Below are positions 16,925 to 39,500 of a stretch of 64,000 nucleotides of DNA, piece after piece (positions within the stretch are counted from its first letter, which is position 1; each line of letters begins with the position of its first letter). Made by a program: the position numbers and the translations under genes. The notes beneath the pieces were generated by a model. The model did no database searches. It was given only the letters and a program-made list of their open reading frames with translations, and had not been told where the DNA came from. The stretch is from Escherichia phage 310Ecol104PP: the sequence record OR062946.1. One strand, given 5' to 3'.

Positions 16925-17290
16925 TTAAATATCAAATTCGTTAAGAACTACATCAAAGATTGCTTCAAGATGCTCAGGTTTAGCTCTGTTACTCAGAATA
17001 TGACGAATCCAAGTTTTAACCAGAAGCTTGCGATTAACGCCATTCCAGCAAGGATGAGTCCCTAAATCGCGTTGACGAAAATCATCATCCAATGCGATTT
17101 TAAAAGAAGAACCTTCTTTCGTGATTGAAACCGTGATGCCATTTTCAAATCGCATATAAACGTAGTTAGGAGTCATATACTGTTCAATTTCGCATACTGA
17201 TCCATTTTGATGTTTCCAAAGGCAGATAGTATCAATAGAACCTGCAATACCGTTAGAAACATATTTACGTTCAAAGTTGATGTAATTCAT
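16925..17290 (-). CDS. hypothetical 121-aa protein (30.7 position)
   Basis: ORF preceded by an early-type promoter. Confidence 0.55.
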   Translation of the reverse strand: MNYINFERKYVSNGIAGSIDTICLWKHQNGSVCEIEQYMTPNYVYMRFENGITVSITKEGSSFKIALDDDFRQRDLGTHPCWNGVNRKLLVKTWIRHILSNRAKPEHLEAIFDVVLNEFDI

Positions 17291-19307: not shown

Positions 19308-19544
19308 TTATTTACCTATTACAGTTTTAATATGGGTTGTTCCACGTTCTTTAAGAGTGGAAAGCAATTTTTGGCATTTTTCTAGATCAGATTTCCAACT
19401 ATACGGTTTATCAATACAAACCCATTCTGACTTATAATACTGCTTCCATTTAGAGAAAAAATACTTCTTATACTCTACAGCAAATGAAATGTTCTCGTTA
19501 GAATAAGAACTAATTGCTGTGAGCTGTACCAAACGAAATTTCAT
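19308..19544 (-). CDS. hypothetical 78-aa protein (31.2 position)
   Basis: ORF abutting cd. Confidence 0.5.
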   Translation of the reverse strand: MKFRLVQLTAISSYSNENISFAVEYKKYFFSKWKQYYKSEWVCIDKPYSWKSDLEKCQKLLSTLKERGTTHIKTVIGK

Positions 19545-20125
19545 TATTCACCACAGAATTCGTTGATATTTTCCCAATTTAACTTATTCAAGTTTTTCTT
19601 AGGAACATTAAACACTTCAATACCTGCATTTCGCAGAATATCATCCCAGCCAGGTTTATTCTTATCGTATGTTTCGCAATAAACCAGCTTTTTAATTCCA
19701 GATTGAGCTATCGCTTTTGCACAATCTGGGCAAGGAGAAAGTGTTACATACATAGTAGCACCTTCAATTGAAGAACCGTTTCGTGCAGCAAACAAAATCG
19801 CATTTAGTTCAGCATGAATTTCATTTTTAGACGACCATTCAGAGTGAGCGCTACGGTGTTCTTTCGCCAAGACAAAGCGATCAGTTGAACCAAACGATAC
19901 ACATTCAGGCTTATGACCTTGAATGATAGTATGTTTAGGCTTATTCAGCAACCAGCCTTGTTCAGCAGCATAATCACAGCAATTCACACCGCCTGCAGGC
20001 GAACCATTATATCCGGTAGAAATAATACGTCCATTCTTTTCAATTACTGCTCCTACCTTCCAGGAGCAACATTTGGATTCTTGTGATACTAAATATGCAA
20101 TTTGAAGTACTGTACTCGCTTTCAT
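19544..20125 (-). CDS. cd: dCMP deaminase
   Basis: 193-aa ORF with zinc-ligand motifs HAELNAI and PCPDCAKAI. Confidence 0.9.
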   Translation of the reverse strand: MKASTVLQIAYLVSQESKCCSWKVGAVIEKNGRIISTGYNGSPAGGVNCCDYAAEQGWLLNKPKHTIIQGHKPECVSFGSTDRFVLAKEHRSAHSEWSSKNEIHAELNAILFAARNGSSIEGATMYVTLSPCPDCAKAIAQSGIKKLVYCETYDKNKPGWDDILRNAGIEVFNVPKKNLNKLNWENINEFCGE

Positions 20126-20460
20126 TTCATAATCACCAGATAAGCAGATTTAGCAGTTTCAACACGATAAATTTCGTGACGAAGTTTAGTTATACTTTTA
20201 ATAACAGAACTAATTATATTCTGCCCATCTTTAAAGCGGTTTTTCTTATCAATAAAAATTGCGCCAGTCATCTTTTTGTGAAGCTCAACTGGATACTTCG
20301 TCACAATAATAGCATCATACACAGAAGGATGAATACTATTCACTAGAGTATCATTCATTAAAGTTATTCTAATGAACTGTGCTGTTTCAGAATCAAGCGC
20401 TCTATGATCGCCAGTATCATTTTCAAGACAATTATCAATTATATCAGTTAAATTCATCAT
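20122..20460 (-). CDS. hypothetical 112-aa protein (cd.1 position)
   Basis: ORF in same-strand train. Confidence 0.5.
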   Translation of the reverse strand: MMNLTDIIDNCLENDTGDHRALDSETAQFIRITLMNDTLVNSIHPSVYDAIIVTKYPVELHKKMTGAIFIDKKNRFKDGQNIISSVIKSITKLRHEIYRVETAKSAYLVIMK

Positions 20461-20693
20461 AGTACGCCATACACCCTTTGTGCTTCAACTAATCCATCAA
20501 AATCCAGTTTGAGATGTGTTATTTGGTCACCATCACTTGGATTCACAATTACTAATACTGAACGAGGAGTTTCGGTAATAACACGAACCGATGTTTCAGG
20601 AAATCGTTCAGAAACTTTATTTACCAATTCCTGAGCAAATAGTTTAACTTTTTCTTGGAATTCTTTAACAGTAATTGGTTTTTCACTTAGCAT
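20457..20693 (-). CDS. hypothetical 78-aa protein (cd.2 position)
   Basis: ORF with GAGGA Shine-Dalgarno, downstream of an early-type promoter. Confidence 0.5.
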   Translation of the reverse strand: MLSEKPITVKEFQEKVKLFAQELVNKVSERFPETSVRVITETPRSVLVIVNPSDGDQITHLKLDFDGLVEAQRVYGVL

Positions 20694-20722
20694 TTCAATT
20701 TCCTCATTTATTTTGGTAGAGC

Positions 20723-20752
20723 TATAATATCACAACTCTACCGTAAAGTAAA
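20723..20752 (-). promoter_or_regulatory. early-type promoter upstream of cd.2
   Basis: GTTTAC, 18 nt, TATTAT on minus strand; overlaps palindrome ggtagag...ctctacc. Confidence 0.45.
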
Positions 20753-20755
20753 CTG

Positions 20756-21031
20756 TTAAATTGCCTTGAATTCTGATGTCTGTGATTCAAAGCGAATATC
20801 GCCTTTGATGACTAGCTCAGCATCAAGACCGAATACGACAATAATATGAGCAGAACCTGGATACAGCGTAATGGCAATAGAATCAACCTGGTCTGGAAGC
20901 AAAGTATTCAATACATGAGTCACTTGAGCATGAATTCGAAGCTCAGCTGCATTATCAAACTTTTCAAACATATTATTAGCGATAATTTGGCTAAACACTA
21001 CTTCTACGATTTTAGAATAAGTCGGAAACAT
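20756..21031 (-). CDS. hypothetical 91-aa protein (cd.3 position)
   Basis: ORF in same-strand train. Confidence 0.5.
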   Translation of the reverse strand: MFPTYSKIVEVVFSQIIANNMFEKFDNAAELRIHAQVTHVLNTLLPDQVDSIAITLYPGSAHIIVVFGLDAELVIKGDIRFESQTSEFKAI

Positions 21032-21033
21032 AT

Positions 21034-21234
21034 TTACCTCACATAATTTTCTTCAAGCCAATCAATAACATCCAACGCACTATCAAAAATTGAACCATCT
21101 ACTTTGTCTTCTGTTTCATAATCAAGAACATCTAAGCCTACTCTTCCGTCAACAATAGGCCATAGACAAAATAGATATTTCTTTTCTTTTTCAATTTTAT
21201 CACAAAGTCGATAAATCTTTTCTATGTTATTCAT
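21034..21234 (-). CDS. hypothetical 66-aa acidic protein (cd.4 position)
   Basis: ORF in same-strand train. Confidence 0.5.
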   Translation of the reverse strand: MNNIEKIYRLCDKIEKEKKYLFCLWPIVDGRVGLDVLDYETEDKVDGSIFDSALDVIDWLEENYVR

Positions 21235-21423
21235 AAGTTTTCCATGGTAAAGGCAGTTTAGTTTTCTTTACTGTTAGTTCAACATTAGGATTCTTTTCTC
21301 TTAATTTAAGACATTCCTCCCAAGCTCTGTATTCACTAGTGAATACACAAAATTGCCCATTACTAGTACCAACTAAACCGCTATTTACAATAACAATAGA
21401 CCAAGTTTCATGATGCCAAGCCA

Positions 21424-21424
<1 letters not shown>
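21227..21424 (-). CDS. hypothetical 65-aa protein (cd.5 position)
   Basis: ORF abutting pseT. Confidence 0.5.
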
Positions 21425-22645
<1,221 letters not shown>

Positions 22646-22649
<4 letters not shown>

Positions 22650-36512: not shown

Positions 36513-39500
36513 ATGGCCGAGATTAAAAGAAAGTTCAGAGCAGAAGATGGTCTGGACGCAGGTGGTGATAAAATAATCAACGTAGCTTTAGCTGATCGTA
36601 CCGTAGGAACTGACGGTGTTAACGTTGATTACTTAATTCAAGAAAACACAGTTCAACAATATGATCCAACTCGTGGATATTTAAAAGATTTTGTAATCAT
36701 TTATGATAACCGCTTTTGGGCTGCTATAAATGATATTCCAAAACCAGCAGGAGCTTTTAATAGCGGACGCTGGAGAGCATTACGTACGGACGCAAACTGG
36801 ATTACGGTTTCATCTGGTTCATATCAATTAAAATCCGGTGAAGCTATTTCGGTTAATACTGCAGCTGGAAATGACATCACGTTTACTTTACCGTCTTCTC
36901 CAATTGATGGTGATACTATCGTTCTCCAAGATATTGGAGGAAAACCTGGAGTTAACCAAGTTTTAATTGTAGCTTCAGTGCAAAGTATTGTAAACTTTAG
37001 AGGTGAACAGGTACGTTCAGTACTAATGACTCATCCAAAGTCACAGCTAGTTTTATTTTTTAGTAATCGTCTGTGGCAAATGTATGTTGCTGATTATAGT
37101 AGAGAAGCTATAGTTGTAACACCAGCGAATACCTATCAAGCACAATCCAACGATTTTATCGTACGTAGATTTACTTCTGCTGCACCAATTAATGTCAAAC
37201 TTCCAAGATTTGCTAATCATGGCGATATTATTAATTTCGTTGATTTGGATAAATTAAATCCACTTTATCATACAATTGTTACTACATACGATGAAACGAC
37301 TTCAGTACAAGAAGTTGGAACTCATTCCATTGAAGGCCGTACAACGATTGACGGTTTCTTGATGTTTGATGATAATGAGAAATTGTGGAGATTGTTTGAC
37401 GGGGATAGTAAAGCGCGTTTACGCATTATAACGACTAATTCTAATATTCGTCCAAATGAAGAAGTTATGGTATTTGGTGCGAATAACGGAACAATTCAAA
37501 CAATTGAGCTTCAGCTTCCAACTAATATTTCTGTTGGTGATACTGTTAAAATTTCCATGAATTACATGAGAAAAGGACAAACAGTTAAAATCAAAGCTGC
37601 TGATGAAGATAAAATTGCTTCTTCAGTTCAATTGCTGCAATTCCCAAAACGCTCAGAATATCCACCTGAAGCTGAATGGGTTACAGTTCAAGAATTAGTT
37701 TTTAACGGTGAAACTAATTATGTTCCAGTTTTGGAGCTTGCTTACATAGAAGATTCTGATGGAAAATATTGGGTTGTACAGCAAAACGTTCCAACTGTAG
37801 AAAGAGTAGATTCTTTAAATGATTCTACTAGAGCAAGATTAGGCGTAATTGCTTTAGCTACACAAGCTCAAGCTAACGTCGATTTAGAAAATTCTCCACA
37901 AAAAGAATTAGCAATTACTCCAGAAACGTTAGCTAATCGTACTGCTACAGAAACTCGTAGAGGTATTGCAAGAATAGCAACTACTGCTCAAGTAAATCAG
38001 AACACCACATTCTCTTTTGCTGACGATATTATCGTCACTCCTAAAAAGCTGAATGAAAGAACTGCTACTGAAACTCGCAGAGGTGTCGCAGAAATTGCTA
38101 CGCAGCAAGAAACTAATACAGGTACTGATGATACTACAATCATCACTCCTAAAAAGCTTCAAGCTCGCCAAGGTTCTGAGTCATTATCTGGTATTGTAAC
38201 CTTTGTATCTACTGCAGGCGCTACTCCAGCTTCTAGCCGTGAATTAAATGGTACGAATGTTTATAATAAAAACACTAATAATTTAGTTGTTTCACCTAAA
38301 GCTTTGGATCAGTATAAAGCTACTCCAACACAACAAGGTGCAGTAATTTTAGCAGTTGAAAGTGAAGTAATTGCTGGACAAAGTCAGCAAGGATGGGCAA
38401 ATGCTGTTGTAACGCCAGAAACGTTACATAAAAAAACATCAACTGATGGAAGAATTGGTTTAATTGAAATTGCTACGCAAAGTGAAGTTAATACAGGAAC
38501 TGATTATACTCGTGCAGTCACTCCTAAAACTTTAAATGACCGTAAAGCAACTGAAAGTTTAAGTGGTATAGCTGAAATTGCTACACAGGTTGAATTCGAC
38601 GCAGGCGTCGACGATACTCGTATCTCTACACCATTAAAAATTAAAACTAGATTTAATAGTACTGATCGTACTTCTGTTGTTGCTCTATCTGGATTAGTTG
38701 AATCAGGAACTCTCTGGGACCATTATACACTTAATATTCTTGAAGCAAATGAGACACAGCGTGGTACACTTCGTGTAGCTACACAGGTCGAAGCTGCTGC
38801 AGGAACATTAGATAATGTTTTAATAACTCCTAAAAAGCTTTTAGGTACTAAATCTACCGAATCGCAAGAAGGTGTTATTAAAGTTGCAACTCAGTCTGAA
38901 ACTGTGACTGGAACGTCAGCAAATACTGCTGTATCTCCAAAAAATTTAAAATGGATTGTGCAGAGTGAACCTACTTGGGCGGCTACTACTGCGATAAGAG
39001 GTTTTGTTAAAACTTCATCTGGTTCAATTACATTCGTTGGTAATGATACAGTCGGTTCTACCCAAGATTTAGAACTGTATGAGAAAAATAGCTATGCGGT
39101 ATCACCATATGAATTAAACCGTGTATTAGCAAATTATTTGCCGTTAAAAGCAAAAGCTGCTGATACAAATTTATTGGATGGTCTAGATTCATCTCAGTTC
39201 ATTCGTAGGGATATTGCACAGACGGTTAATGGTTCACTAACCTTAACCCAACAAACGAATCTGAGTGCCCCTCTTGTATCATCTAGTACTGCTACGTTTG
39301 GTGGATCAGTTTCGGCAAATAGTACATTAACTATTTCTAACGCTGGAACAGCAACTCGTCTGATTTTTGAAAAAGGACCTCAGACTGGAACTAACCCAGC
39401 ACAGACGATGACTATCAGAGTTTGGGGAAATCAGTTTGGCGGCGGATCAGATACAACACGTTCTACTGTATTTGAAGTTGGTGATGAAACATCTAATCAC

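Follow-up and report, generated by a model that had tools for sequence, protein, structure and literature searches.

What fills the space between the genes for polynucleotide kinase (pseT) and dCMP deaminase (cd) in Escherichia phage 310Ecol104PP (OR062946.1), and what do these fillers do? The 64,000-nucleotide (nt) stretch analysed here, which we call the window, carries at this place five minus-strand open reading frames (ORFs) of 65-112 amino acids (aa), cd.1 to cd.5. A first-pass annotation had treated them as one cassette with an internal early promoter at 20723-20752. The phage is T4-like and belongs to the genus Tequatrovirus: over the 3-kb interval around the five ORFs, identity was 97.7% with Escherichia phage sutha and ~94% with T4. 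The region is probably orthologous to the stretch from pseT to cd in T4, a short hyperplastic segment of accessory genes in which five small genes form two blocks around a promoter-early stem-loop (PeSL) and encode small modulators made early in infection.

Several lines of evidence support this assignment. In the records of T4, RB14 and RB3 these ORFs carry the names cd.1–cd.5, and their products are listed as hypothetical proteins. The T4 orthologues (UniProt P32287, P39498, P39499, P39500, P39501) share 94-99% aa identity with the proteins here, and gene order and flanking genes are alike. Each protein had a full-length match to a PHROG family, with E between 1e-37 and 1e-50 (all families labelled as of unknown function); with the Pfam matches and the position between pseT and cd, this places all five in the T4 orthologous groups. 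The coordinates and names of the five ORFs, and their location just downstream of pseT on the same strand, were confirmed by the Pfam matches of the flanking anchors and by the T4 annotation.

We estimated the ratio of nonsynonymous to synonymous substitution rates (dN/dS) across ten Tequatrovirus loci. Values were 0.22 for cd.5, 0.12 for cd.4, 0.03 for cd.3, 0.05 for cd.2 and 0.09 for cd.1, compared to 0.14 for pseT and 0.01 for cd, which indicates purifying selection over the whole of each of the five genes. Searches with tblastn returned 511-891 phage records per gene (cd.1, 614; cd.2, 800; cd.3, 891; cd.5, 511). The low dN/dS values, the full-length PHROG matches and the wide tblastn distribution together indicate that the five ORFs are genuine genes and not chance ORFs.

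The start of cd.5 differs from the T4 records, which annotate a 75-aa protein beginning 30 nt inside pseT (T4 locus L001:3331-3558); here the ORF has 65 aa. The 65-aa version probably has the true start: the N-terminal extension is not open in this phage, where only the conserved methionine of MAWHHETW can start the ORF, and the M-A/G-W/Y-H-E motif is also where the distant homologues in S16 and CR9 begin.

Gene blocks and the element between them

The junctions between the genes are tight. The pseT stop and the cd.5 start share one base (TAATG), the cd.4 ATG lies 8 nt inside the end of cd.5, and cd.3 starts 2 nt past the cd.4 stop with its Shine-Dalgarno (SD) sequence GAGG within cd.4. The cd.2 stop and the cd.1 start overlap as ATGA, as do the cd.1 stop and the cd start. 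Because stop and start codons overlap or abut and the sole gap is the PeSL spacer, the genes form two translationally coupled blocks, pseT–cd.5–cd.4–cd.3 and PeSL–cd.2–cd.1–cd. The junction sequences did not bear out the idea of one cassette: cd.5, cd.4 and cd.3 are the tail of the pseT unit, and cd.2 and cd.1 are the head of the cd unit (Table 1).

A consensus scan placed a promoter on the minus strand at 20752..20724, namely TTTACT-17-TATTAT plus an upstream TG. A consensus match alone was not above chance (7 sites found vs 12.8 expected in shuffles). The site is conserved across genera, and T4 records annotate it as early promoter Pe133295; the internal early promoter of the first-pass annotation is present. 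Its parts are GTTTAC at 20753-20748, the TG-extended -10 TATTAT at 20729-20724, SD GAGG at 20705-20702 and the cd.2 ATG at 20693. A palindrome, GGTAGAG-N14-CTCTACC, with arms at 20742-20736 and 20721-20715, encloses the -10 element. The predicted stem is a perfect 7 bp (12 bp with wobble pairs) of about -16 kcal/mol, and the -10 sits in its loop.

This layout is that of a PeSL, an intergenic cassette of a sigma-70-like early promoter, a stem-loop, and then an SD sequence and ATG (Arbiol et al. 2010, PMC2839356; Comeau et al. 2014, PMC4122927). The stem-loop of a PeSL lies most often between the promoter boxes or overlaps the -10 (PMC2839356). PeSLs are enriched in hyperplastic regions, next to indels (PMC2839356, PMC4122927), and those of RB49 and phi1 have demonstrated strong promoter and terminator/attenuator activity (PMC2839356, PMC4122927). 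TTTACT-N17-TATTAT fits the T4/PST consensus TTTACW-N17-TAYWAT (PMC4122927), and the stem-loop overlapping the -10 belongs to one of the two commonest subclasses (PMC2839356). The element is intergenic, following the cd.3 TAA (20758-20756) and ending with SD GAGG and the cd.2 ATG at its 3' end. Multiple copies and an indel association are also found, in the form of further sites in the window and an indel of the gene ORF214c at the 3' edge. Upstream of the -35, where PeSLs have an AT-rich tract, only 5 nt lie between the cd.3 stop and GTTTAC, and the sequence beyond is coding. OL960580.1 independently annotates the site as a promoter plus a terminator. Judged by its layout, 20694-20755 is a PeSL. 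The promoter core does overlap a palindrome, as had been remarked, with the -10 inside the hairpin loop; this is no peculiarity of the phage, since it is the arrangement of a described class.

Orthologous spacers carry arms that differ and are nevertheless complementary: GGTAGAG/CTCTACC in Tequatrovirus, GGTAGGAC/GTCCTACC in Dhaka-like phages and GGTGGAGTT/AACTCTACC in Mosig-like phages. Among seven sequences, which represent only about three independent lineages, 95% of cells in the arm alignment were paired, compared to 31-69% with the partner arm slid by 1-3 columns, and three pairs had changed on both sides. Unrelated promoters in phage PEi20 and elsewhere in the window have the same layout with wholly different arms. 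The covariation is evidence that the hairpin is under selection for base-pairing.

Could the palindrome instead be an invertible switch, in which inversion of the 14-bp loop within its 7-bp repeats would toggle the promoter? A T4 misc_feature describes the 14-bp loop as the 'inverted complement of previously reported sequence', and a flipped loop, as read from the sequence, would put the -10 only 13 bp from the -35 and inactivate the promoter. We observed, however, that among 419 phage records matching the element the flipped loop occurs in context only in X03007.1, a 2.4-kb T4 fragment. The remaining matching records have the palindrome read on the opposite strand only, and loop orientation was identical in all genera examined. 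An invertible promoter switch is thus highly improbable, and we rejected it. The reversed loop of X03007.1 (window 20722-20735) looks like an old sequencing or assembly artefact at the hairpin, echoed in the T4 misc_feature.

As a PeSL, the element would begin a new early transcript that covers cd.2–cd.1–cd. By analogy with published PeSL work, it may also attenuate or insulate read-through from upstream. Gelderlandvirus has the same genes without a PeSL, so regulation differs between genera.

At least four further PeSL-like sites lie on the minus strand of the window, with -35 elements at about 17356, 32454, 36467 and 62931 and unrelated stems. Each has GTTTAC and a hairpin whose loop contains or adjoins the -10, and then an SD sequence and ATG. 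The 17.3-kb site (GGTACAGG…CCTGTACC) precedes a 121-aa ORF at 16925-17290 and has promoter-like hexamers on the plus strand too.

Table 1. Features of the pseT–cd interval, with positions in the window
Feature	Position	Strand	Identification and remarks
cd	19544-20125	minus	dCMP deaminase; flanking anchor; Pfam dCMP_cyt_deam_1 PF00383, E 4e-26
cd.1	20122-20460	minus	112 aa; phrog_2063; no Pfam family; semi-variable member
cd.2	20457-20693	minus	78 aa; Pfam DUF7320; phrog_1504; core member, first gene 3' of the PeSL
PeSL	20694-20755	minus	Intergenic element, 62 nt; sole non-coding gap in the interval
cd.3	20756-21031	minus	91 aa; Pfam DUF7355; phrog_1695; core member
cd.4	21034-21234	minus	66 aa; phrog_2360; PF26883 precomputed on homologues; variable member
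cd.5	21227-21424	minus	65 aa; Pfam T4_Y13H PF25744; phrog_2430; variable member
pseT	21424-22332	minus	Polynucleotide 5'-kinase/3'-phosphatase; flanking anchor; Pfam HAD_PNKP E 1.5e-59, AAA_33 E 1.2e-22

Core and accessory genes

We compared gene content across T-even genomes using 24 loci that hold both pseT and cd, mapped with iteratively built family hidden Markov models (HMMs); pattern and protein scans of IMG/VR contributed few additional loci. The general order was pseT – [cd.5] – [cd.4] – [f71] – cd.3 – (PeSL) – [ORF214c] – cd.2 – [cd.1 or DAHP synthase] – cd, with variable members in brackets. Both cd.2 and cd.3 were present in 24/24 loci, including those of Gelderlandvirus, Karamvirus, Moonvirus, Tegunavirus, Kanagawavirus and Marfavirus, and the divergent members were confirmed with Pfam. 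These data show that cd.2 and cd.3 are the conserved core, and that cd.5, cd.4, cd.1, ORF214c and f71 come and go. The content of the interval is thus not invariant, and no function is assigned to its genes in the resources searched.

The variable members differ in range. cd.4 was found in Tequatro-, Dhaka/Gapriver-, Mosig- and Gelderland-type phages, and cd.5 in Tequatrovirus, S16, CC31 and CF1 as well as in the non-T4-like Certrevirus phages CR9 and DU_PP_IV. The f71 gene (phrog_3609, ~71 aa) occurs in every non-Tequatrovirus locus examined and is absent from Tequatrovirus, including the window, which suggests that it has been lost from that genus. It lies between cd.4 or pseT and cd.3 and encodes the motif …RYK.EY.VEF.P…V.V.VHTVH (for example L020:3700-3918, L019:3891-4106 and L025:3508-3723). 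The cd.1 slot holds a 330-aa DAHP synthase instead in locus L014, Kpn BM7 and PEi20 (L014:6646-7638, L025:4275-5267, L027:4537-5532). This auxiliary metabolic gene (phospho-2-dehydro-3-deoxyheptonate aldolase) stands directly upstream of cd in Mosig-like phages, Marfavirus (Klebsiella) and Kanagawavirus (Edwardsiella).

Within Tequatrovirus, tblastn counted ~497 records with cd.1-3 compared to ~424 with cd.4 and cd.5; the latter two genes are missing from ~15% of the genus (RB3, ECO07P1, L006). What is left there is a 20-codon remnant, ATG-GCT-TGG-CAC-CAT-GAA-ACT-TGG…ATT-AAT-TGG-CTC-GAA-GAA-AAT-TAT-GTG-AGG-TAA (MAWHHETW…WLEENYVR*), in which the first cd.5 codons are fused to the last cd.4 codons. 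Because this fusion remains, and because its ATG is already mutated in ECO07P1, the loss is derived, a single internal short-homology deletion that was not mediated by a PeSL.

A second indel concerns ORF214c (175 aa, acidic), which is present in 303 records (~61% of Tequatrovirus) and absent here and in T4. The indel spans exactly from the PeSL SD to the cd.2 ATG, and the insert supplies its own AAGGAG for cd.2. Distant homologues of ORF214c fill the same slot in Dhaka-like phages. No second PeSL flanks ORF214c, so the mini-circle mechanism described for PeSLs is not demonstrated for this indel. All four combinations of presence and absence of cd.4-5 and ORF214c occur. The events seen in the interval were of three kinds: deletion through short homology, gain or loss of a cassette at the edge of the PeSL, and replacement of the gene in a slot.

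Two further differences were seen. In MZ501098.1 (Escherichia phage PaulHMueller, ~37845-38099), only the C-terminal half of ORF214c remains (83% identity), beside a putative homing endonuclease gene, which suggests another rearrangement at the PeSL-adjacent slot. Upstream, the present phage differs from T4 in carrying pseT.x (minus strand, 22329-22649), a 106-aa ORF between pseT and pseT.1 that belongs to the RB32ORF217c family (phrog_2364, no Pfam family). It is found in the present phage, RB14 and RB3 and is absent from T4, a further indel of the same hyperplastic segment.

Expression, dispensability and searches for function

In T4, all five genes are classed as early at the RNA level and their Gene Ontology terms are given as 'none' (Wolfram-Schauerte et al. 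2022 supplement, PMC9697503). At the protein level, Cd.2 is classed as early, Cd.1, Cd.3 and Cd.4 as middle, and Cd.5 as late (PMC9697503). In a genome-wide dCas13d knock-down of T4 (CRISPRi-ART), all five were scored 'Not Fit' (-0.14 to +0.43) with function unknown, and cd and pseT knock-downs likewise scored 'Not Fit' (PMC11879866). The guides for T4 cd.5 sat around the 75-aa start (134007-134052), and that knock-down may have been weakened.

Profile searches of the five ORFs returned only Pfam and PHROG families of unknown function. The papers searched, like Pfam, NCBIfam, PHROGs, PADLOC and the PDB, assign no function to Cd.1–Cd.5. PDB sequences gave no significant match to any of the five in single-sequence or profile searches, NCBIfam gave no match, and the PADLOC models, which cover defence systems and are not a dedicated anti-defence library, gave 0 families at E ≤ 1. 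Literature searches by gene name and by the five UniProt accessions found no relevant paper. The earlier statement that the ORFs lack recognisable motifs stands in that none falls in a function-bearing family; it does not stand for family membership as such, since cd.2, cd.3 and cd.5 have Pfam families and the homologues of cd.4 have PF26883 (Table 1).

More distant relationships were equally uninformative. All-against-all hhalign comparison of cd.1-5, f71, ORF214c, pseT.x and 31.2 found no hidden paralogy (best probability 7.8%). An exhaustive HMMER search of 1.84 billion representatives found only 11 relatives of cd.1, all single-domain and with no informative fusions, and the homologue search for cd.4 and cd.5 reached only relatives ≥65% identical. 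A DinI-like identity for Cd.2 was rejected: the Pfam PF06183 match scored 14.5 bits where the gathering cut-off is 24.2 (E 0.045), and the family profile found no DinI chain in the PDB at E ≤ 5.

One apparent fusion came up for Cd.5. P0032, from a 1702-nt ENA contig, is a predicted 385-aa protein in which a fragment of a signal recognition particle (SRP)/FlhF-like GTPase and RHS/YD repeats are joined to the final 47 residues of Cd.5 (94% identical). Chimeric assembly of a metagenome is almost certainly the explanation, and not an RHS toxin with a Cd.5 tip.

Possible roles and the fold of Cd.4

We also compared predicted structures of Cd.4 and Cd.5. The predicted local distance difference test (pLDDT) scores of the five AlphaFold models of Cd.4 ranged from 61 to 90, and the AF2 model of Cd.5 reached only 67. 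Cd.4 is predicted to adopt an α-β-β-β-α fold closest to that of T7 Gp1.2 (PDB 7U65, 2MDP; Pfam DUF2745; phrog_2949), and the Cd.4 model has the three-stranded antiparallel sheet under two helices that is typical of Gp1.2. The likeness comes from one AlphaFold model built on a shallow alignment of 14 sequences ≥73% identical. Gp1.2 is a counter-defence protein that inhibits the E. coli dGTPase (dGTP triphosphohydrolase, Dgt); its helix α1 wedges between two Dgt monomers, and its N-terminal tail enters the active site. No sequence relatives of it were found in structural databases, and whether other viruses have inhibitors of deoxynucleoside triphosphate hydrolases (dNTPases) was left open (Klemm et al. 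2022, PMC9478638).

Sequence comparison did not extend the likeness. Cd.4 had no Pfam match to DUF2745 at E ≤ 1, eight diverse Gp1.2 and eight diverse Cd.4 homologues aligned with an hhalign probability of 0.1%, and a forced global alignment was no better than column shuffles (z = -0.25). PHROGs keeps the two proteins apart (2360 and 2949). Cd.4 is 19 residues shorter than Gp1.2, its first helix begins at residue 3 in the model, and the invariant GR(L/I)YSGNL tail that plugs the Dgt active site has no counterpart in any of 8 diverse members of the Cd.4 family. We therefore rejected sequence homology between Cd.4 and Gp1.2. The α-β-β-β-α domains of the dsRBD (double-stranded RNA-binding domain) and of HPF/YfiA scored much below Gp1.2 against Cd.4. 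The acidity of Cd.4, which had been noted from the sequence, was confirmed (isoelectric point, pI, 4.35; net charge -7); cd.3 (pI 4.9) and cd.2 (pI 5.3) encode mildly acidic proteins. This acidity argues against a dsRBD-like RNA- or ribosome-binding role. Cd.4 probably works as a small acidic protein-protein inhibitor.

The first-pass annotation had pointed to this place as a context in which counter-defence genes cluster. That the whole group is a set of such genes beside pseT, the gene of the tRNA-repair enzyme, with every member counteracting a host immune system, is in our view rather unlikely, and the evidence divides along the line between accessory and core members. The accessory behaviour of cd.4, cd.5, cd.1 and ORF214c is as expected for counter-defence, as are early timing in T4 (PMC9697503), the lack of a fitness effect on a defence-poor laboratory host (PMC11879866) and the relatives of cd.5 in unrelated phage families, which suggest horizontal spread. 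The best structural match of the Cd.4 model is, moreover, a bona fide counter-defence protein; this resemblance is the only positive hint in that direction, and it fails the sequence and motif tests. For these variable members, including perhaps cd.1 and ORF214c, counter-defence is plausible. It is unlikely for cd.2 and cd.3, which do not resemble host-specific counter-defence genes because they occur in all 24 loci, in a large number of genera and hosts, and their dN/dS is very low (0.05 and 0.03). Purifying selection extends over all five genes with no arms-race divergence seen, and no library searched gave a family match. Adjacency to pseT is something the genes have in common with dCMP deaminase, and it stems from the structure of the operon, not from function. 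Universal presence, strict position in the 24 loci and strong purifying selection would be accounted for if Cd.2 and Cd.3, and perhaps Cd.1, were phage-intrinsic auxiliary factors of the coupled genes of nucleotide and nucleic-acid metabolism, for example assembly or regulatory subunits of the dNTP-synthesising complex. Translational coupling, both in cd.2–cd.1–cd and from pseT to cd.3, is consistent with this, as is the metabolic enzyme (DAHP synthase) that takes the cd.1 slot in some genera. We nevertheless consider such a role unlikely: PDB profile searches found no similarity to known enzyme subunits, Gelderlandvirus has the same genes without the PeSL, and knock-down had no measurable effect on T4 fitness, but cd and pseT knock-downs had none either (PMC11879866).

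A narrower proposal makes Cd.4 a functional analogue, or else a very remote homologue, of Gp1.2 that binds and inhibits Dgt or a related dNTPase, sparing the dGTP pool for phage replication. Cd.4 is small, acidic and expressed early, its neighbourhood near dCMP deaminase is one of nucleotide metabolism, like T7 gene 1.2 it is not needed on a normal host, and the question left by Klemm et al. (PMC9478638) gives room for such inhibitors in other phages. The failed sequence and profile comparisons, the separate PHROGs and the missing plug all count against it. So does the behaviour of T4: the optA1 host, which overproduces Dgt, supports growth of wild-type T4 but restricts the polymerase mutant tsL141 (PMC4014421), which indicates that Dgt stays active in infection, and a heterologous dGTPase protects against T4 (PMC13519002). 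Because of these two observations, T4 does not fully neutralise dGTPases. Inhibition of a dNTPase by Cd.4 is thus a long shot. Equally improbable is the broader form of the proposal, in which the Cd.4 family (phrog_2360/PF26883) would be a second family, unrelated in sequence, of phage proteins that have the Gp1.2 fold and inhibit host dNTP triphosphohydrolases, acting against nucleotide-depletion defence of the Dgt/SAMHD1 type. If it were true, a counter-defence mechanism so far limited to T7-like phages would extend to the T-even group, and the question of Klemm et al. on other viruses would be answered. The family would then be spread among T-even phages of Escherichia, Shigella and Salmonella and, in a jumbo phage of Xanthomonas, be part of a larger fusion protein, and the cd.4+cd.5 deletion lineage (~15% of Tequatrovirus) would be a natural loss-of-function set.

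The reading we prefer remains an accessory-gene segment encoding early small modulators. The small Cd proteins would act early, binding host or phage proteins stoichiometrically or modulating them, and would matter only in particular hosts or conditions. Cd.4 may be an acidic α-β-β-β-α wedge that binds an enzyme in the manner of Gp1.2, with a host dNTP triphosphohydrolase as a candidate target. Several points weigh against this picture. A small protein-binding modulator is what size, early timing and dispensability would suggest for almost any such gene. The conservation of cd.2 and cd.3 leaves room for a phage-intrinsic role hidden from a plaque-fitness assay in a single host. The link from Cd.4 to Gp1.2 is at the level of the fold only, from that one model, and the fold is a common one (dsRBD, HPF). 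As for the PeSL, promoter and terminator/attenuator activities have been measured only for RB49 and phi1; the present hairpin has no downstream U-tract, and the scan found no terminator.

Re-identification by itself adds little here, since cd.1–cd.5 are already catalogued T4 hypothetical genes and the promoter and hairpin form a described element. The map of core (cd.2, cd.3) and accessory genes (cd.4, cd.5, cd.1, ORF214c, f71) can guide tests for phage-intrinsic compared to host-specific roles, and the natural deletion lineages are usable as ready-made mutants. The new lead is the predicted Gp1.2-like fold of Cd.4, which offers a concrete, testable enzyme-inhibitor hypothesis for a T4 gene of unknown function.

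Of the five families, only that of Cd.4 turned up in a multi-domain protein, XbC2_165 of the Xanthomonas jumbo phage XbC2 (L024:3498-4175, 225 aa). Its first ~62 residues are a clear Cd.4-like domain (phrog_2360, E 5e-12), and they are followed by ~160 acidic residues that gave no match.

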